From a virus (lineage: Duplodnaviria; Heunggongvirae; Uroviricota; Caudoviricetes), in the IMG/VR virus record IMGVR_UViG_2565956711_000012: a DNA stretch of 29,461 nucleotides, one strand, 5' to 3'. The translations under genes were made by a program, and so were the position numbers. Every line of letters begins with the position of its first letter. The stretch's first letter is position 1. Positions 16,458 to 23,426 of this stretch are shown one piece after another. The notes beneath the pieces are model-generated. The model saw only the letters and a list, made by a program, of their open reading frames with translations. It ran no database searches and had not been told where the DNA came from.

Positions 16458-18040
16458 CAGAGTAATCCCCGCTGATTTTTAAGACCCCGTGTGATGCGGA
16501 CCTGACGGTGTTCATTACGCTCATCGGGGCGGGAAGGTTTCTTTAACTTGTGGACTTCATAACGCCGGCAGTCCTCGCGACTGGCGAGGAAACCGAGAAA
16601 AATAGCGATAGCGGAGTCACCGTGACGCTTGCGGCCATCGGTGCCGGTAGTGCGTGCATCATCAATGCCAGGTACGCCGCGATAAAGCTGAATAGCGCCG
16701 AGATCGGTGATCACATCTTCATGCTTTGGCAGTACCAGTTCATTGTCTTCGAATGCCGCACGGAACCGGGGCATGTTTTCCCGGTAGTATTTGACGGAAA
16801 GCTGCACCTGCTCAACTTCATCACCGTATTTTTCCGCCGCCTGTTCTGCCAGATACTGACCGTTACCCCGTGCATCGAGCTTGATGCCGTCGCGGCGGGG
16901 AAGACGATCACAGATATAAAACAGCGCCTGTTCCTGCTGTTTAAATGGCACATTGCTGAGTTCCACCAGGAACGGGACGTTGCGCGTCGTGTCATCGTTG
17001 ACTGTCACCGGCGCAAACACGGTCAGGTCACCGTTACGCGCAAAGTCCTCCCCCAGACAGTGGCGCAGGTTCTGCGGCAGTTTCTCCAGTTCGGGAAGTA
17101 CGACCGTCTCCAGCCATTCCTGCATGTCCACACGGCGCAGCCCGTCCGGCATCGCGTTAAAATCAGCCGTACCGGTGAAGCGCAGGACAACGGTCGGACC
17201 TCTGGCCGCGCGTTCGCGCAGGGAACGTGCGATATAGACGCCACCGCCGTTCTTCGGCTCGCAGTAATACTCCTCGCGGGCATCTTCCTCTGTGGCCGTG
17301 TCGCTCAGCAGGTTAGCCAGCCATTCCGCTTCGCCCTCCACAGACCAGACTTTTTTTGTGACCTGACAGATGCGCTGATACAGCCCCTCAGCAATGGCCG
17401 TTTCAATATCGACGTGATGGACAGAGTAGCGTTTTTTCCCGGCCCGGCTGTCGGTGATGATGGTGTTAAACAGGTTATCAATACCGTTGTGGGTGGAAAT
17501 AAGGCGAACATTATTCCCCCACATTGTCAGCGCCAGCGCCGCCTTGAGTACCGCTGCAAGGTCAGCCTGGAATGCGGCCTCATCAATGATGACGTTACCC
17601 TGCATACCACGCAGGTTCGACGGGTTAGACGACAGTGCTTTGATTTTGTAGCCACTGGCGAACTGGATGACATAGACCAGGATGTCTTTGTCTTCATCCT
17701 TCAGCACTTCTTCACCAATGCCAGACGCGGCGCGGTCATAGGCTTTCGCCCACATGGCACAGGCATCAATAAACTCACGGGCCATGTCTTTCGTCGTACC
17801 GACGTAGAACGTGTCGCACCCGCCGGCCTCCACCGACATTGAGCCATTCAGGGCCGCGTCAGCCGCTTCCGCCCAGGTCAGACCGGTACGACGCGACTTC
17901 TCGGCAATCTTCAGTTGAGAGGAATCAGCAATCCACCGCTTCTGGTAGGGAAGCAGTAGCTGGCTTTTGTCGAACTCACCCGACAGGATAGCCGCAGCGG
18001 ACTGACTGGTGAGTGTTCTGTCCGGCGTCATCGTCGTCAT
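16457..18040 (-). CDS. terminase large subunit (Mu gp28-like)
   Basis: 527-aa ORF between terminase-small-like and portal genes; acidic nuclease-like C-terminal half. Confidence 0.85.
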   Translation of the reverse strand: MTTMTPDRTLTSQSAAAILSGEFDKSQLLLPYQKRWIADSSQLKIAEKSRRTGLTWAEAADAALNGSMSVEAGGCDTFYVGTTKDMAREFIDACAMWAKAYDRAASGIGEEVLKDEDKDILVYVIQFASGYKIKALSSNPSNLRGMQGNVIIDEAAFQADLAAVLKAALALTMWGNNVRLISTHNGIDNLFNTIITDSRAGKKRYSVHHVDIETAIAEGLYQRICQVTKKVWSVEGEAEWLANLLSDTATEEDAREEYYCEPKNGGGVYIARSLRERAARGPTVVLRFTGTADFNAMPDGLRRVDMQEWLETVVLPELEKLPQNLRHCLGEDFARNGDLTVFAPVTVNDDTTRNVPFLVELSNVPFKQQEQALFYICDRLPRRDGIKLDARGNGQYLAEQAAEKYGDEVEQVQLSVKYYRENMPRFRAAFEDNELVLPKHEDVITDLGAIQLYRGVPGIDDARTTGTDGRKRHGDSAIAIFLGFLASREDCRRYEVHKLKKPSRPDERNEHRQVRITRGLKNQRGLL

Positions 18041-18615
18041 TCTGCAATCCCCAGAATCTGGCGTTTGATATCAGCCGCTGTCTCAGCAGACAGCCCGGCA
18101 GAACGGGTGATGGTTTCTGCGGCCGCAGCGGCTTTTTTCGCAAACTCCTGCTGGATCTCTTTCTCGCGTTTGTGGCTTGCCATCGCTGCGGCTTCCAGTC
18201 GCTGGGCGACAAGTGCAAGCTGACCCAGCGCTTTTGGCTCAACGCTCTTACCGCTGTCAGCCATGTCCATTGAGGTTTCAAAGGCCAGTGTTTTGACAAA
18301 CTCCAGCAGTAACTTCCCGACATCTGACGTCGGCGCAGAGCCAAGTTTTGAGGCCCATATTTCAGCCATCTCGCGTGAAGCGCGAATCTTTGACCCCATC
18401 GTTTCCATGCGGCTTGCGTAGCGGTTCAGACCAGTACGACTGATTTGCATGTCCTCCGGGAGGTTATATTCGTTGATCAGCTCGTTAATAGCTTCGCGGA
18501 TTTCTTCCTGGGTATGTCGTTTATCGCGCAGCATCTGATGCAGTTGCTCCCGGACCGCATCCGGGAGCAAATCAATCTTTGAAGGTCGTCCGCGCGTCTG
18601 GCGTTCACTTGCCAT
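18037..18615 (-). CDS. terminase small subunit candidate (Mu gp27-like, DUF3486-like)
   Basis: 192-aa ORF; N-terminal basic region (RGRPSKIDLLPDAVREQL), helical C-terminus; 4-bp overlap with terminase large subunit. Confidence 0.6.
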   Translation of the reverse strand: MASERQTRGRPSKIDLLPDAVREQLHQMLRDKRHTQEEIREAINELINEYNLPEDMQISRTGLNRYASRMETMGSKIRASREMAEIWASKLGSAPTSDVGKLLLEFVKTLAFETSMDMADSGKSVEPKALGQLALVAQRLEAAAMASHKREKEIQQEFAKKAAAAAETITRSAGLSAETAADIKRQILGIAE

Positions 18616-18904
18616 TCTCCCTCCTCATACGCTCAAGGAAGTCACGTTCAACGCTGGATTTGTCTTTCAGCAGCAACTTCCAGACGCGTTTATATTCCGG
18701 GTTGCTGTTGAGGAATGTGTTCAGATACGAATCAGCGGATTCGGAGTTGTATTTTTTACCCGTCGATTTTTCAAACTGCGGCGCAATGGCTCTGACTTCA
18801 ATTTCCGCACAGACGAGAATGGCGGCCATTTTCCGGATAATGTCGCGCTGGCTGTTGCTCAGTGGCTTAAGGGCTTTAGTCATGGCTGATGTTCTCCAGT
18901 TCAA
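18605..18904 (-). CDS. hypothetical protein (late operon); true start may be the internal ATG giving MTKALKPL
   Basis: 99-aa ORF, overlaps the terminase-small start by 11 bp; no recognisable motif. Confidence 0.4.
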   Translation of the reverse strand: MNWRTSAMTKALKPLSNSQRDIIRKMAAILVCAEIEVRAIAPQFEKSTGKKYNSESADSYLNTFLNSNPEYKRVWKLLLKDKSSVERDFLERMRRENGK

Positions 18905-19256
18905 AAATACGCTCTGTCACATCGTTAATCGCATCCGTAAAACCAAATGCGCTGCTCCACTCCGGGGGCGCACCGGTTACAGCCTCATACATGCTGTCCA
19001 GTGCGGCGATGACCTGATCGCGCTCTCCGATAAGCTGGGTTTCAGAGCGATCCAGCCGGGCAATACCTTCCAGTGCTTTTTCATTTGCACTGATAAGGGA
19101 TTCAATGATCACAGCGGCCTGAAAAAGCGCATTTGCTGACATGCAGATTTCCCCAGACTCCCGACGTTCTGCCAGACCTGACAGGCGGCGCAGCTGTTCC
19201 GCCTGCTGGCGGCAGGTCATTAACATTTGAAGTATTCTGGCCCGTTCCATCGTCAC
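18876..19256 (-). CDS. hypothetical protein (late operon)
   Basis: 126-aa ORF with 4-bp overlap to the upstream gene; predicted helical. Confidence 0.4.
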   Translation of the reverse strand: MTMERARILQMLMTCRQQAEQLRRLSGLAERRESGEICMSANALFQAAVIIESLISANEKALEGIARLDRSETQLIGERDQVIAALDSMYEAVTGAPPEWSSAFGFTDAINDVTERIFELENISHD

Positions 19257-19546
19257 TCCCGCGCACGTGGTTTTTTGACGCCGGGGACCGTCGCCAGCCC
19301 GAAGGCCACATCTTCACCGCGTCCTGTGATGCCGGCGACGTAACACCCGGAGACATCTGACAGGGTGACGAGTCCCTGTTCACGTAGCCACGCAAGGAGG
19401 GTGCGGACGGTGTCACGGGAAACCCGATGGCCGTAAGTCTGAAGGCAGGTCTGTAGAATGGATTCGTTTGCACTGTCTCCGCACTCCACCAGTGAGCGCA
19501 GAATGACCAGTCGCTGGTCGCTGTTGAGGATTTCTTGCATGCTCAT
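19253..19546 (-). CDS. small winged-helix-like DNA-binding protein candidate
   Basis: 97-aa ORF; pattern QRLVILRSLVECGDSANESIL...VSRDTVRTLLAWLREQGLV resembles winged-helix regulators. Confidence 0.4.
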   Translation of the reverse strand: MSMQEILNSDQRLVILRSLVECGDSANESILQTCLQTYGHRVSRDTVRTLLAWLREQGLVTLSDVSGCYVAGITGRGEDVAFGLATVPGVKKPRARE

Positions 19547-19552
19547 AGCCTC

Positions 19553-19858
19553 TTAATTTTTTTCCTTCAGTTCGTTTTCCAGCAACAGATCGCTGATACG
19601 TGTGGCCTGCCGGAGCATTCCGGAGAACTCCCGTATTTCGCCGCGCAGGTTGCTCATATCCAGTTGCAACTGGTGGAGTTCCTGCCGTGACGGCATCCCG
19701 TCGATGGCCTTTTCAAGTGCACTCATCCGGCTGTTAACTTTCTCCATCTCTTCCCGGCGGGCATAGGTTTTCACCAGCAGCAGGTGGATAATATTGATAC
19801 CGGACATCAGTCCGGCCCAGATGACAGCCCAGTTACTTCTTACGGTTTCCCATTCCAT
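19553..19858 (-). CDS. membrane-anchored coiled-coil protein (Mu gp25-like / DUF2730-like; lysis-associated)
   Basis: 101-aa ORF; N-terminal hydrophobic segment WAVIWAGLMSGINIIHLLLV followed by a heptad-rich coiled coil. Confidence 0.5.
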   Translation of the reverse strand: MEWETVRSNWAVIWAGLMSGINIIHLLLVKTYARREEMEKVNSRMSALEKAIDGMPSRQELHQLQLDMSNLRGEIREFSGMLRQATRISDLLLENELKEKN

Positions 19859-20065
19859 TTATGCCGTCTCCCTGAGTGTCTGGCAGTCAATGCAGGTCAC
19901 GGCATCCGGCATGGCCGCCAGTCGTTTAGGGTCAATTTCGTCACCACAGTCGTTGCAGTGACCTGGAGTATCAGGAGATTCTTTAACCCTGTTTAACAGG
20001 GCATTTAATGCCCGTTCACGGTCTGCCATCTCAAGGCCGCTGGCCTTGTCCAGTTCATCCGTCAT
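19859..20065 (-). CDS. TraR/DksA-family C4 zinc-finger protein
   Basis: 68-aa ORF with C-x2-C ... C-x2-C (CNDCGDEIDPKRLAAMPDAVTCIDCQ), the TraR/DksA signature. Confidence 0.75.
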   Translation of the reverse strand: MTDELDKASGLEMADRERALNALLNRVKESPDTPGHCNDCGDEIDPKRLAAMPDAVTCIDCQTLRETA

Positions 20066-20670
20066 TTACCCGCCGCCATCGTTTTGTGTTTGCTGGATTT
20101 GCTGTACCGGGCGAACCCGTCAAGGGTGCGAAAACCGAGATACCCGAGCGCCGGTGTCGCCAGCATGAGTGCGATATCCCAGTCCGGTGATGGCATGGAG
20201 AAGGCATGACCAAAAGCACCGGATACCGCGCCAGCCTGCTGACCCACTGACATCAGCATCACATACGCAATGCTGCTGTAGAGCGACAGCCTCGCCATCA
20301 GCGGCCTGGTCTGACGGACATATTCATCCGTGGCGTTGTCCCCGTTACGGATGGTTTCCTGCTGTTCATGGTGGGCAGCCTGACGGTCAGCCAGTACGGC
20401 TTTGTCCCGCTCAAGCTGGAATTGCTCAATCTGGACTTTTAGGGACTGGAGCTGGACGAACTGTTCTGGCGGCAGCGCCGCCAGTTTCTGCTCAAGCACC
20501 CGCTGCTGGTCCTGCGGGTTGATGACGCTGTTGACGTTCTCAACGATCCCCGCCACAGAATCTGCCGTTCTGGCGGTGTCGCCACCGAACCAGCCTCCCA
20601 CGGTACGCAGTAATGACGGTCCGGCCTTCATCAGAACGGAGGCAATGGTGGTGAGGGTTACTGGATCCAT
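20062..20670 (-). CDS. putative holin-like membrane protein
   Basis: 202-aa ORF; soluble N-terminal region and C-terminal hydrophobic segments (YSSIAYVMLMSV; IALMLATPALGYLGF); lies in the lysis block. Confidence 0.4.
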   Translation of the reverse strand: MDPVTLTTIASVLMKAGPSLLRTVGGWFGGDTARTADSVAGIVENVNSVINPQDQQRVLEQKLAALPPEQFVQLQSLKVQIEQFQLERDKAVLADRQAAHHEQQETIRNGDNATDEYVRQTRPLMARLSLYSSIAYVMLMSVGQQAGAVSGAFGHAFSMPSPDWDIALMLATPALGYLGFRTLDGFARYSKSSKHKTMAAGK

Positions 20671-21065
20671 ACAAGCAGCCCCTTACGTGCAACCCACTGA
20701 CAGAACAGAAATCCTGTGGCTGCGCCGAGTGGTTCAAGGACAAGCAGGTACAGCGGGCTGGCATAAAGTGGACTCAGGCAGATAAGAACGAACCCAACTC
20801 CCCAGACAACCCACGACCAGAAACATGCATGCCGGCTGATATGCATTTCAGGTTTAAGAAGCCTGTAAGGCAGATTGCCAAGAAAGATGCTGAACCCGAC
20901 CAGGACCACACCGGACAACGCCAGCCACCAGACCATAAATGCCTGGCGGCCTGAGAAACTACAGATGAACAGCGACAGGCCGACGAGAATGACAATGCTC
21001 CATCCGGAGCGCAAAACCTGTACCAGTGCCAGCTTTAACCAGTCACAGCTAAACGATTTAAACAT
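20658..21065 (-). CDS. polytopic inner-membrane protein (lysis block; holin/antiholin candidate)
   Basis: Start chosen at internal ATG (MFKSFSCDWLK...) which overlaps the upstream stop as ATGTTTAA; about four hydrophobic helices; the longer ORF-track version (to 21236) overlaps the upstream gene out of frame. Confidence 0.45.
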   Translation of the reverse strand: MFKSFSCDWLKLALVQVLRSGWSIVILVGLSLFICSFSGRQAFMVWWLALSGVVLVGFSIFLGNLPYRLLKPEMHISRHACFWSWVVWGVGFVLICLSPLYASPLYLLVLEPLGAATGFLFCQWVARKGLLVWIQ

Positions 21066-21276
21066 TGTGTTTTTCCTTGTATCGCTGGCATTGCCAGACG
21101 ATGTCTCTGATATCGACGGATGACCAGCCGCGCATGTAGTAACTGGCGTGTGTACCGTCATGACCTGCATAACTTGTCGGAACGGGGACGGGGCCACCTG
21201 CCATTCGGTGAAGAACTTCCTGCCGCAGCCGGTCACGTCGTCCCTGTTTCAGCGAAGCGTCCCATCCCTTGCCCAT
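21058..21276 (-). CDS. small hypothetical protein translationally coupled to the endolysin
   Basis: 72-aa ORF whose ATG lies 1 nt after the endolysin stop; GC-rich; no recognisable motif. Confidence 0.35.
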   Translation of the reverse strand: MGKGWDASLKQGRRDRLRQEVLHRMAGGPVPVPTSYAGHDGTHASYYMRGWSSVDIRDIVWQCQRYKEKHNV

Positions 21277-21277
21277 A

Positions 21278-21868
21278 TCAGCTCCGGGCTACCGAATAGC
21301 GGACACCGGAAATCTCACGACAGGCGTCAGCGAGGTTGTCCAGTCGGTTAAACCAGCCGTTGAGGAACTTGCCCTGTGAAGGATTTGATTTGATGATGTC
21401 GGCGTAATAGCGGGAACGACGCAGAAATAAACGGTTCAGCAGCCAGTCAGGGTCAGCACCTTCAACGGCTGCGCGGGTGTTTTTACCGGCGATACCATCA
21501 ACACTTTTGCCGGTGAAACCCGCAGCTTCCTGAAGCAACTGGACAGCCTTTTTGACGCCATGCTGGACGGCAGAGTCAAAGGCAAACAGGGCTATATCAT
21601 CCGGCCAAAACTGGCAATACGCGGGATACCAGTAGTCACGGAAGTAAATCTGTCCGGCCTGTTCAACCGTTAAATCACGAATACGCGTATCAGGCTTGCC
21701 ATCGCCATTAACGTCGGTCATGCCATCGGCAACACCGTCGCGTTTATCTGATATACCGAAGTTGGTTTCACCGCCACGGTCAGTGGGGTCATTGACATAT
21801 CCGCGTTCTGCGCTGAGCACGAAAGCAAGAGCATTGCGAAATGCGGGAGAATCGGGGGTGTTGTTCAT
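21278..21868 (-). CDS. endolysin, GH108-type N-acetylmuramidase with C-terminal peptidoglycan-binding region
   Basis: 196-aa ORF; N-terminal ERGYVNDPTDRGGETNFGIS matches the GH108 catalytic motif as I recall it; no signal peptide or SAR segment; AGGTG about 7 nt upstream of ATG. Confidence 0.75.
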   Translation of the reverse strand: MNNTPDSPAFRNALAFVLSAERGYVNDPTDRGGETNFGISDKRDGVADGMTDVNGDGKPDTRIRDLTVEQAGQIYFRDYWYPAYCQFWPDDIALFAFDSAVQHGVKKAVQLLQEAAGFTGKSVDGIAGKNTRAAVEGADPDWLLNRLFLRRSRYYADIIKSNPSQGKFLNGWFNRLDNLADACREISGVRYSVARS

Positions 21869-21919
21869 AAAACGGCACCTTTGGAAGTGGGTTAGTTTTC
21901 CCTTCCATCATGTGCCGGA

Positions 21920-21946
21920 CGAAAAAAAAGCCGGATTAACCGGCTT
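21920..21946 (-). terminator. intrinsic terminator ending the early (mor-moron) transcript
   Basis: Minus-strand RNA: AGCCGG-UUAAU-CCGGCU stem-loop followed by 8-9 U; located 30-50 nt after the moron stop. Confidence 0.65.
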
Positions 21947-21948
21947 CA
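21933..21948 (-). promoter_or_regulatory. 16-mer TGAAGCCGGTTAATCC (copy 1, about 64 nt upstream of the endolysin ATG)
   Basis: Identical 16-mer occurs again at 13959-13974, about 60 nt upstream of the I ATG; candidate late-activator site. Confidence 0.45.
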
Positions 21949-21978
21949 TTCAATGGATATAACTAGCGAATTCACTCA

Positions 21979-22488
21979 CTATGCTTTTCGTAAATCGCAG
22001 GAGTAAGTAACTGACTCCATAACTTTTCGAATAGTGGCTCGTAATTCCATTCCAGATGTAAAACCTGATGCTGAATAAGAGTCGTCTTCTCTTCTATTTG
22101 CCGTCGCTTTTGTAAAAATCTCAGCAACTTGATTGATTGAGTTTTCTGAGTCTTTCTTTCCCGTCACCCCCTCTACGAGTTTTACACATTGATTAACAGC
22201 AGCCAGTGATTCACCGTCAATATCTTTACCACTTGAAAACACCATTGCTGTAACTGCATCTGTACCTAATGCCCAAACGGTACTTACAGTGGAATCTTCA
22301 GTTGTTGCTGTATAAACCTGAACACCATCAACTATGGCTCCTTTTTTCCATTCTGTTTTTTTCAGGACACCCATTTTATCAAATTGAGAAATAAGCTTTT
22401 CATTACCTGTTAGTTCATCTTTATCGAAAAAATAGTGATACCCCCCAACTAAAATAACGGCCAGTATTAATGCATCAGTAAATTTCAT
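21979..22488 (-). CDS. moron: membrane-anchored or secreted protein of unknown function
   Basis: 169-aa ORF; N-terminal hydrophobic stretch (FTDALILAVILVGGYHYFF); clearly AT-rich compared with flanking DNA; GGAG about 7 nt upstream of ATG, inside the end of mor; followed by an intrinsic terminator. Confidence 0.6.
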   Translation of the reverse strand: MKFTDALILAVILVGGYHYFFDKDELTGNEKLISQFDKMGVLKKTEWKKGAIVDGVQVYTATTEDSTVSTVWALGTDAVTAMVFSSGKDIDGESLAAVNQCVKLVEGVTGKKDSENSINQVAEIFTKATANRREDDSYSASGFTSGMELRATIRKVMESVTYSCDLRKA

Positions 22489-22491
22489 ATG

Positions 22492-22902
22492 TTACTCCCT
22501 GCCAAATAAATCCAGTTGATGCTTGCGGTGCTCTAGTTTACGCATGCGTCTGATGGCTTTATACACCGTTTTATAGGTAACACGGTAACGCTCAACCAAC
22601 TCTGTGATGTTTCTGCCATTGAAATCACGCCAGATTTTCATATCACGAATCAATGACTCAAGAGTCTGGCCGCGTGGGAAATAAATCTGCATACCGCCAA
22701 TCTGACAGCTAATCGCGTAAACCAGCTCCAGAGAGATACGTGGGTCAACGCCATGCTTTGTCAGTTCGCCACGCAGCAGCGTATTCAGTTCTGTCAGCAG
22801 TGCAGGGAAACGCACTGTTTCCGCCGAACTGTCATCGTCCAGGTGCTCCAGAATGCTGTCATCCTGGATATCACCAAACAGATCATTCTGCTTTTCGCTC
22901 AT
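22492..22902 (-). CDS. mor: middle-operon regulator Mor (Mor/C family transcription activator)
   Basis: 136-aa ORF; DLFGD near the N-terminus, FPALLTELNTLLRGEL, IRDMKIWRDFNGRN and C-terminal HTH YKTVYKAIRRMRK match Mor as I recall it; sits right after the gemA-like gene as in Mu. Confidence 0.8.
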   Translation of the reverse strand: MSEKQNDLFGDIQDDSILEHLDDDSSAETVRFPALLTELNTLLRGELTKHGVDPRISLELVYAISCQIGGMQIYFPRGQTLESLIRDMKIWRDFNGRNITELVERYRVTYKTVYKAIRRMRKLEHRKHQLDLFGRE

Positions 22903-23426
22903 GTGCGCACCTTTCTTACTTTACTGGAATACAGGCTGTTGATGGCGTCATAACCCCGATTATCCTGAAATGCCAGGTCTCGCGGACTCAGCGCCTCTGT
23001 CATTTCTCTCAGATGCCATTGCTTGAGGCTTTCCAGCACCATCAGAAGATTATCGCCACGGCACCATGCCAGGCTGGCGATACCTTTACCTTTGTTGGTT
23101 CTGACAGTCATCTTCGAGACGAACGTATCCAGTGCGGTATCGCTGCCATCACGGATAAACCCATCAAGATGCATCTGCCGCCAGATGCTGCGAACCTTTG
23201 CGGTGATATCTGTTTCACGATGACGGCGAGCCGGAGAACGGGGGCGAGTACGCCTGAATCCCTTATCCTCCAGTACCTTCAGTACATCCTCCAGTTGGCC
23301 GACCTTCAGATCACGACAACTTTGCTTTCCCGTTACGCGATAAAGCACTGAACGGTAGGTGTCATCGTCCAGCTGTAGATTGCGACGGGCAACATGGATT
23401 AACTTAATCAGGGATGCGCGGCTCAT
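22899..23426 (-). CDS. gemA: GemA-like early protein (Mu gp16 position, DUF1018-like)
   Basis: Start set at internal ATG (MSRASLIKLIHVARRNLQLDD...); stop overlaps mor start by 4 bp, as for gemA-mor in Mu. Confidence 0.5.
   Translation of the reverse strand: MSRASLIKLIHVARRNLQLDDDTYRSVLYRVTGKQSCRDLKVGQLEDVLKVLEDKGFRRTRPRSPARRHRETDITAKVRSIWRQMHLDGFIRDGSDTALDTFVSKMTVRTNKGKGIASLAWCRGDNLLMVLESLKQWHLREMTEALSPRDLAFQDNRGYDAINSLYSSKVRKVRT

Follow-up and report, generated by a model that had tools for sequence, protein, structure and literature searches.

The Caudoviricetes virus record IMGVR_UViG_2565956711_000012 is a stretch of 29,461 nucleotides (nt) of DNA, referred to here in its full length as the window, and the minus strand is the coding strand for every one of its genes. 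Positions 20062–21868 hold four consecutive genes with the appearance of a lysis cassette. The first of these, lys (21278–21868), encodes a muramidase of 196 amino acids (aa) with the Pfam domains GH108 and PG_binding_3. It is followed by orf72 (21058–21276), whose 72-aa product was recognised by tblastn and by PF26867 as a homologue of gp18 of phage Mu; by orf135 (20658–21065), encoding a 135-aa protein of phrog_12596 with four transmembrane (TM) segments by hydropathy; and by orf202 (20062–20670), encoding a 202-aa protein that resembles the TeaA and gene transfer agent (GTA) holins through profile and fold similarity to PF11351. A previous, sequence-only reading of this DNA had described the same four open reading frames (ORFs), all of them confirmed on the minus strand, and the PGAP annotation of a prophage of Escherichia coli ECONIH5, 99.9% identical to the window in DNA sequence, gives exactly the same ORFs. 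That reading had described a soluble 72-aa protein, a polytopic protein of about 135 aa and a 202-aa protein with C-terminal hydrophobic segments, with which hydropathy agrees, adding a weak N-terminal helix in orf202. As orf72, orf135 and orf202 each have homologues of conserved length, they are taken to be real genes and not chance ORFs. The overlapping stops and starts that had been reported along the cassette are found between orf72 and orf135 (8 nt, ATGTTTAA) and between orf135 and orf202 (13 nt), but not between lys and orf72, which are separated by a 1-nt spacer (TGA-T-ATG). Beyond the cassette, orf202 overlaps the following traR gene by 4 nt (ATGA), and the TAA of traR is directly followed by the ATG of a DUF2730 gene with a 0-nt spacer.

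The product of lys matches Pfam Glyco_hydro_108 at 3.3e-21 and PG_binding_3 at 1.8e-16, with the catalytic motif E-R-G-Y in the place of the E-G-G-Y that is usual in the GH108 family. No 19-residue window of the protein reaches a Kyte-Doolittle value of 1.5, and neither a TM nor a signal-arrest-release (SAR) segment was found. Additionally, the alignment to the GH108 structure PDB 2is5 begins at residue 9, so that the protein has no N-terminal extension. The proposal that the endolysin is a GH108 enzyme with neither signal peptide nor SAR segment is thus borne out, and as a soluble enzyme it needs a route of export. Residues ~41–65 form an insertion, DKRDGVADGMTDVNGDGKPDTRIRD, with a DxNxDGxxD motif resembling a calcium-binding loop; this insertion is missing from 2is5 and is kept in the 70%-identical enzyme of Yersinia phage vB_YpM_5. 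The TtsA-type GH108 muramidases of type 10 secretion systems are like lys in combining GH108 and PG_binding_3 without a signal sequence, and they are holin-dependent; the type 10 systems of Salmonella are also devoid of spanins. The type 10 systems are, however, chromosomal secretion islets, whereas the present cassette sits in a complete Mu-like prophage beside the packaging genes.

The candidate for the export of this enzyme is orf202. Its hydrophobic parts comprise a weak N-terminus and two C-terminal TM segments at ~128–148 and 164–180, followed by a basic tail. The AlphaFold2 (AF2) model is all-helical with a pLDDT of 91, and has helices at residues 3–28, 116–152 and 164–182 together with a central helical domain, in which residues 68–111 form a long, coiled-coil-like helix. 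An exhaustive HMMER search with orf202 recovered 133 representative clusters of relatives, typically 170–210 aa long and none above 230 aa, and 28 of the 61 full-length relatives match PF11351 (GTA_holin_3TM) at E ≤ 0.01, the best of them at 8.4e-9. The top Foldseek match to the orf202 model in BFVD was annotated as ‘Holin of 3TMs, for gene-transfer release’ (E 1.5e-7, 34% identity, full length), with the same family again at rank 3. When the profile of the orf202 family was compared by hhalign with ORF137 of phage ICP1, the alignment covered 132 columns at E 8e-6 and 84% probability.

Among the proteins of this superfamily, TeaA of ICP1, which belongs to PF11351/DUF3154, is an experimentally tested holin (Hays and Seed 2020, PMC7182436), and the rcc00555/556 locus of the gene transfer agent RcGTA, in which rcc00556 is the holin, is required for lysis and release (PMC5026251). 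Both proteins are built like orf202: the weak N-terminal helix runs up to a WFGG motif, the middle of the protein is a helical domain, and the two TM segments near the C-terminus precede a basic tail. The WFGG motif is common to TeaA and orf202, although their overall sequence identity is low, and all three proteins are linked to endolysin or lysis genes. By transitive and profile homology and by predicted fold, orf202 can therefore be placed as a divergent member of the PF11351/TeaA holin superfamily. This placement offers an annotation for several hundred proteins currently listed as ‘hypothetical’, in 248 clusters at 90% identity or 133 at 50%. The partner of TeaA in ICP1, ArrA, has no detectable counterpart in the prophage. 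In the ICP1 genome (NC_015157, 18541–20097), ORF139 (a TM segment and a coiled coil), ORF138 (the polytopic ArrA), ORF137 (TeaA) and ORF136 (small and Cys-rich) match in build the DUF2730 protein, orf135, orf202 and the TraR protein, respectively. Homology was sought by hhalign for ORF139 with DUF2730, for ORF138 with orf135 and for ORF136 with TraR, and was found in none of these pairs, so the parallel with ICP1 is an analogy at best.

The genomic context of the orf202 family points in the same direction. Homologues lie directly downstream of a GH108 gene in Vibrio phage LP.1, of an amidase gene in Vibrio podophage 219E41.2 and of an LD-endopeptidase gene in Janthinobacterium phage Donnerlittchen. 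Two genes stand between lys and orf202 in the window, compared with only the gp18-like gene in the Mu-like phages of Vibrio and Shewanella. These marine phages, Vibrio 1.028.O (Nahant), Martha 12B12 and Shewanella vB_SspM_MuM16-2, share the gene order Mor, hypothetical, endolysin, 18-like, orf202-like, DksA/TraR, DUF2730, 26-like and TerS; their gp18-like protein has 86–91 aa, and the enzyme of Martha is a DUF5675 protein and not a GH108. In Vibrio 1.028.O and Shewanella MuM16-2, which encode a soluble GH108, the only membrane proteins of the cassette are the orf202 homologue and the DUF2730 protein, and plaques were the source of the sequenced Nahant and Martha isolates. Across 80 related loci, retrieved with a 12-sequence alignment as the query and comprising close relatives only (65–100% identity), orf202 is among the best-conserved genes of the cassette, at 86% identity against 52% for orf135 in the same loci. 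In Mu itself, gp19 and gp20 have both been put to the test: neither is a holin, and lysis does not require them (PMC9239132). Owing to the relation to TeaA and the GTA holins, the composition of the marine cassettes, the results for Mu gp19, gp20 and gp25, the adjacency to endolysin genes and the conservation of the gene, orf202 is the best holin candidate in the region, and probably acts as one.

A number of observations weigh against this assignment. Searched singly, orf202 scores only 15.3 bits against PF11351 (E 0.03), under the gathering score of 24.8 bits, and its TM segments are only moderately hydrophobic. The link to TeaA by hhalign is likewise only moderate, at 84% probability, and ICP1 ORF137 (182 aa) was taken to be TeaA on the strength of its ORF number and its size, not of an explicit accession. 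The Yersinia phage vB_YpM_5 encodes a GH108 enzyme 70% identical to that of lys and yet no orf202. Lastly, a ‘holin III’ is annotated upstream of the endolysin gene in Donnerlittchen, with the orf202 homologue downstream, and thus the orf202 family need not provide the sole or primary holin.

With orf202 as the holin, lysis would proceed as follows. The GH108 muramidase would build up in folded form in the cytoplasm as orf202 gathers in the inner membrane, where the latter is expected to present its weak WFGG-containing N-terminal helix, a cytoplasmic helical domain of ~100 aa, the two C-terminal TM segments and the basic tail. At a set time orf202 would permeabilise the membrane, and the muramidase would reach the murein. 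The products of orf72 and orf135 appear to form a translationally coupled module that is probably accessory, acting for example in lysis timing, as an antiholin or in exclusion. On balance, and with moderate confidence, we favour this explanation as a whole, namely a Mor-activated operon in which the orf202 holin releases the GH108 enzyme, orf72 and orf135 are accessory and no spanin takes part.

The principal competitor of orf202 for the role of holin is its neighbour orf135. The hydrophobic segments of orf135 lie at ~19–37, 43–63, 81–100 and 104–123, and from family-averaged hydropathy and charge the protein is predicted to reside in the inner membrane with its central loop and its two ends on the cytoplasmic side (N-in/C-in). 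It matches phrog_12596, and its family comprises 21 clusters from Enterobacteriaceae only, nearly all of 135 aa; it has no Pfam match, and none of the holin families of Pfam, PHROGs and NCBIfam resembles it. With a single exception, the IMG/VR relatives that have both flanks carry, in the slot between the gp18 and orf202 genes, a polytopic protein of 110–135 aa with the same overlapping ATG, and the occupants of the slot represent at least four types that are unrelated or have diverged beyond recognition. In the loci where it can be recognised, orf135 is the fastest-diverging gene of the cassette, at 52% identity against 73–86% for its neighbours in the same loci, and in the Vibrio and Shewanella relatives the slot is empty. 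A homology of orf135 to Mu gp19 was considered and rejected (BLASTP E 0.65; hhalign probability 0.4%), the two having only position and polytopic nature in common, and profile comparison showed no relation to the ICP1 antiholin ArrA.

As a small, polytopic protein of predicted N-in/C-in topology, encoded between the endolysin and orf202 and translationally coupled to both, orf135 could be the true holin, leaving orf202 as an antiholin regulator or with another role in the envelope. The variable slot and the divergence of orf135 would suit proteins as diverse and fast-evolving as holins, and in Donnerlittchen an orf202 homologue coexists with a distinct small holin. This possibility is nonetheless unlikely, as the slot is empty in Vibrio and Shewanella phages that encode a soluble GH108, of which the Vibrio ones form plaques; testing of its positional counterpart in Mu, gp19, showed that this is not a holin (PMC9239132); and no holin family in the three databases resembles orf135. 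The sequence-only reading had left holin and antiholin undecided, and for one of the two membrane proteins this has changed: orf202 is the best holin candidate by homology, whereas orf135 still stands without an assignment, and an accessory or antiholin role for it is a guess.

The lack of a recognisable spanin is the second feature of the cassette that calls for an explanation. The earlier reading had seen no lipobox-bearing spanin and proposed an all-frame search for one. Every start codon in every frame of both strands was scanned for a lipobox, a procedure that recovered the Mu o-spanin gp23.1 as a positive control, and the search was widened to positions 17500–23000 and to the whole prophage. 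No lipobox ORF was found in 17500–23000 and none that is credible in the whole ECONIH5 prophage, in keeping with that reading. Weak, lipobox-like matches in terL, in a minor head gene and on the antisense strand were judged to be chance, being non-canonical, out of frame in structural genes and without a partner i-spanin. Along the full genome of Vibrio phage 1.028.O, the coding strand has no lipobox ORF, and no plausible one lies near the orf202 homologues of five other phages; homologues of Mu gp23 or gp23.1 occur in none of the 80 related loci. In Martha 12B12, positions 4617–4742 between the DUF2730 and gp26-like genes form a 41-aa ORF, absent from the annotation, that has a single strong hydrophobic segment; it matched the lipobox scan but is unlike an o-spanin. 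About 15% of phages of Gram-negative hosts are without spanins (bioRxiv 10.1101/515445), so that their absence here is unusual but not unprecedented. As no spanin is encoded, rupture of the outer membrane would occur either unaided or through one of the unassigned proteins of the cassette.

One such possibility is that the orf202 family acts last, in outer-membrane disruption or envelope fusion, and replaces the spanins while another protein exports the endolysin. The position of orf202 is that of the Mu spanins gp23/23.1, between lys and gp24, and the order holin, endolysin and orf202-like in Donnerlittchen puts the latter in the usual place of Rz/Rz1. The failure to find a lipobox ORF in the ECONIH5 prophage, on the 1.028.O coding strand or in the five other neighbourhoods with orf202 homologues is in line with such a substitution, as is the coiled-coil-like helix at 68–111. 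A relationship of orf202 to the Mu i-spanin gp23 was examined, and no similarity was found. Against a terminal role, the basic residues before the second TM segment and in the C-terminal tail place the helical domain in the cytoplasm by the positive-inside rule, out of reach of the outer membrane; TeaA, the relative that has been characterised, acts as a holin; and spanins are dispensed with by the 15% of phages mentioned above in any case (bioRxiv 10.1101/515445). We therefore regard a spanin-like function of orf202 as very unlikely.

The DUF2730 protein (19553–19858, 101 aa) is a further membrane protein encoded downstream of lys. It matches PF10805 at 105 bits and E 2e-30 over profile positions 2–102 of 102, and Mu gp25 at 28% identity and E 7e-12. 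An acidic N-terminus precedes its TM segment at residues 10–30, which is followed by basic residues (K30, R34, R35) and a coiled coil predicted to be cytoplasmic. In Mu, lysis takes place without a holin and relies on the DUF2730 protein gp25, the ‘releasin’ that frees the SAR endolysin of Mu and is required for endolysin function (PMC9239132). In each of the 34 phages examined in that study, a DUF2730 gene lies at most five genes away from the endolysin gene (Chamblee et al. 2022, PMC9239132). The protein encoded in the window is predicted to have the N-out/C-in topology described there and its gene is the fifth after lys; the SAR endolysin with which gp25 is paired has no equivalent, as lys has neither SAR nor TM segment. 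Most of the partner endolysins of DUF2730 proteins are without SAR domains, including the GH108 enzymes of the Nahant Vibrio phages, and the role of DUF2730 beside these was called an important open question; the pairing of GH108 with DUF2730 is already present in Table S1 of the same work (PMC9239132). Because lys has no SAR anchor, the role of DUF2730 here must differ from SAR release.

Export of the endolysin through the inner membrane could instead be the work of the DUF2730 protein and not of orf202, with DUF2730 resembling a releasin or a holin but serving soluble endolysins. Such a role would agree with the position of the gene, at most five genes downstream of the endolysin gene in 34 of 34 phages, cytoplasmic endolysins included, and with the requirement for gp25 in Mu (PMC9239132). 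It is improbable given that gp25 is neither lethal nor triggered by dinitrophenol (DNP) (PMC9239132), that its known activity is the release of a membrane-anchored SAR domain, which lys does not have, and that the non-Mu phages with orf202 homologues beside their endolysins have no DUF2730. More speculatively, the soluble endolysin, the TeaA-like three-helix protein and DUF2730 could form the conserved core of a distinct lysis pathway of spanin-less Mu-like phages. In such a pathway, the weak, Gly/Ala/Ser-rich N-terminal helix of the TeaA-like protein would serve as a SAR-like trigger on which DUF2730 acts in place of an endolysin anchor, and the lesion itself, or one of the partners gp18 and orf135, would make spanins unnecessary; we attach little credence to this scheme. 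With orf202 retained as the candidate holin, the main value of the region, which is otherwise an ordinary mosaic lysis region, is that it provides an E. coli system for DUF2730 beside a cytoplasmic endolysin and for spanin-less lysis. E. coli itself thereby carries the case left open by Chamblee et al. (2022). As the host is E. coli and the cassette is common in Klebsiella and Citrobacter, the questions concerning orf202, DUF2730, the gp18 module and the outer membrane are open to the lysis genetics established with lambda and Mu.

The second gene of the cassette, orf72, had been counted among three unassigned genes, a description that fails for two of them: orf202 is placed in the PF11351/TeaA superfamily, and orf72 is a homologue of Mu gp18, for which no lysis role is known in Mu. 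Identity between orf72 and Mu gp18 (E18) is 66.7% over all 72 aa by tblastn, and PF26867 (Phage_Mu_gp18) is precomputed on every orf72 homologue, with lengths given as 72–87 or 51–87 aa. Hydropathy indicated no TM segment in orf72, and the AF2 model has three helices at a pLDDT of 87, for which a fold search returned no significant structural neighbour. On sequence grounds orf72 is thus considered a soluble orthologue of gp18. The Mor-dependent middle operon of Mu opens with gp18, whose end overlaps the gene for the membrane protein gp19 by the same 8 nt. The family phrog_2121 aligns with orf72 over its positions 3–74 and with orf202 over positions 90–275. A fused gp18-orf202 protein was nonetheless rejected, since gp18 homologues have 51–87 aa and orf202 relatives at most 230 aa, and no protein of the length of phrog_2121 turned up in the searches. 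With its 284 positions, phrog_2121 probably merges two families, either as a clustering artefact or through rare fused or frameshifted ORFs.

A comparison of the gene orders shows how far the cassette departs from that of Mu. The Mu order is Pm-18-19-20-C-Plys-22 (SAR lysozyme, PF00959)-23/23.1 (spanins)-24-25-26-27, whereas that of the prophage is a Pm-like element, GH108, 18, orf135, orf202, traR, DUF2730, 26-like, two extra ORFs and 27. Common to both are a Pm-type hairpin with a presumed Mor site, a gp18 gene leading with an 8-nt overlap into a gene for a polytopic membrane protein and, further downstream, a zinc-finger gene, DUF2730, a gp26-like gene and the small terminase gene gp27 (TerS). 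The second activator C, the SAR lysozyme gp22 and the two-component spanins are present in Mu only; in the prophage, a soluble GH108 gene stands between the Pm-like element and gp18, and orf202 takes the place of the C-lys-spanin block of Mu. The sequence-only reading had held that the cassette differs from that of Mu, and this is correct for the SAR lysozyme and the spanins but not for orf72, which, as a clear homologue of gp18, is the same as in Mu. Similarly, its delimitation of the unit to 20062–21868 captures the four genes and omits traR and DUF2730 downstream and the Pm-like promoter upstream.

The same arrangement recurs in other phages. Klebsiella phage Kp4866-3 has the same cassette at ~71% DNA identity; in it, as in the Vibrio and Shewanella relatives, the counterparts of orf72, orf135 and orf202 bear no annotation other than hypothetical. 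Klebsiella prophages show the gene order of the window, one 201-aa variant of orf202 occurring in 919 blocks of the collection searched, and the cassette is abundant in prophages of Klebsiella and Citrobacter. The plaque-forming Muvirus vB_YpM_5 (MT374853) carries a gene for a soluble GH108 at 2648–3208, between Pm and gp18, and in addition the full Mu set of SAR lysozyme, gp23/23.1 and gp25; it thus has two muralytic enzymes and no recognisable holin. This insertion of GH108 on top of a full Mu set indicates that the GH108 gene can move as a module. In the region, known modules are combined as a mosaic, and the arrangement already occurs in sequenced, plaque-forming phages. Judged from its genes, the cassette would be of the holin-endolysin type, with a PF11351-type candidate holin, inside a Mu-type late operon with gp18 and DUF2730, a known kind that is widespread in enterobacterial prophages.

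Expression of the cassette appears to depend on an element within the 110-nt intergenic region upstream of lys (21869–21978). Approximately 50–80 nt before lys, the minus strand contains a terminator-like site at 21917–21946, composed of the hairpin AAGCCGGTTAATCCGGC, a T-run and CGTCC. The sequence AGCCGGTTAATCCGGC with T-run and CGTCC differs by only one base, in the T-run, from what lies between mor and gp18 in Mu. This stretch of Mu is contained in the ‘Mu Pm nt9163’ primer and in the fragment cloned as ‘Pm’ by Chamblee et al. (PMC9239132). In Pm, the site bound by Mor is a 16-bp element at −43.5 that contains two 5-bp inverted repeats (PMC4390567). The features looked for in a Pm-type promoter are such an element, a weak −10 downstream of it and the lack of a −35. 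No sigma-70 consensus promoter was found around the hairpin. We infer that the hairpin is both the terminator of the early transcript and the inverted repeat presumed to bind Mor, equivalent to the Pm element, which would make lys the first gene of a Mor-activated operon.

The presumed activator is the Mor/C-family protein of 136 aa encoded at 22492–22902 on the minus strand (Pfam Mor, 3.6e-31; phrog_532, late transcriptional activator), the sole Mor-family coding sequence annotated in the whole ECONIH5 prophage (2900–34700). With one Mor/C-family gene only, and a Pm-like element directly before lys, the regulatory cascade probably has two tiers, passing from the early genes through Mor to the late genes, where Mu has three. 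Transcription would start at the Pm-type promoter and run through lys, gp18, orf135, orf202, traR and DUF2730 into the packaging genes, with ribosomes handed from gene to gene across gaps of 0–1 nt or overlaps of 4–13 nt. The region would therefore constitute the promoter-proximal part of a Mor-dependent late operon of a Mu-like, transposable myovirus prophage.

Downstream of orf202, and likewise on the minus strand, traR (19859–20065) encodes a 68-aa TraR/DksA C4 zinc-finger protein (Pfam zf-dskA_traR, 7e-13; TIGR02419). It is the positional equivalent of Mu gp24, to which it has weak similarity, and its product is probably a modulator of RNA polymerase and not a lysis protein. After the DUF2730 gene come genes for a gp26-like ‘VpaChn25_0724’ protein of 97 aa (19253–19546), for two ORFs of 126 and 99 aa without a family match (18876–19256 and 18605–18904) and for the 192-aa DUF3486/gp27 small terminase, TerS (18037–18615). 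Mu and the Vibrio phages have nothing in the place of the two ORFs at 18605–19256, and the 126-aa ORF was found in only 18 of the 80 related loci. Scans with PADLOC, NCBIfam and Rfam gave nothing informative on the unassigned ORFs or the region, which holds no notable repeats.

Upstream of the hairpin, between it and mor, orf169 (21979–22488, minus strand) encodes a 169-aa protein with an N-terminal hydrophobic segment and no match in Pfam, PHROGs, NCBIfam or PADLOC. Its GC content of ~43% is low compared with the 52–57% of its surroundings, and homologues are present in only 23 of the 80 loci. The same position is taken by a 107-aa ORF in other strains, by one of 174 aa in Klebsiella and by one of ~150 aa in the Vibrio and Shewanella phages, and the early operon seems to end here in a moron slot. 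The ECONIH5 prophage as a whole is a complete Mu-like myovirus of ~32 kb, with genes for a repressor, the transposition proteins A and B, Gam, GemA, Mor, a Mu-type head and contractile tail and an invertase. It is inserted in the nitrate sensor gene narX, which it splits into a truncated narX on one side and a small remnant beside narL on the other (935–2647 and 34619–34714).

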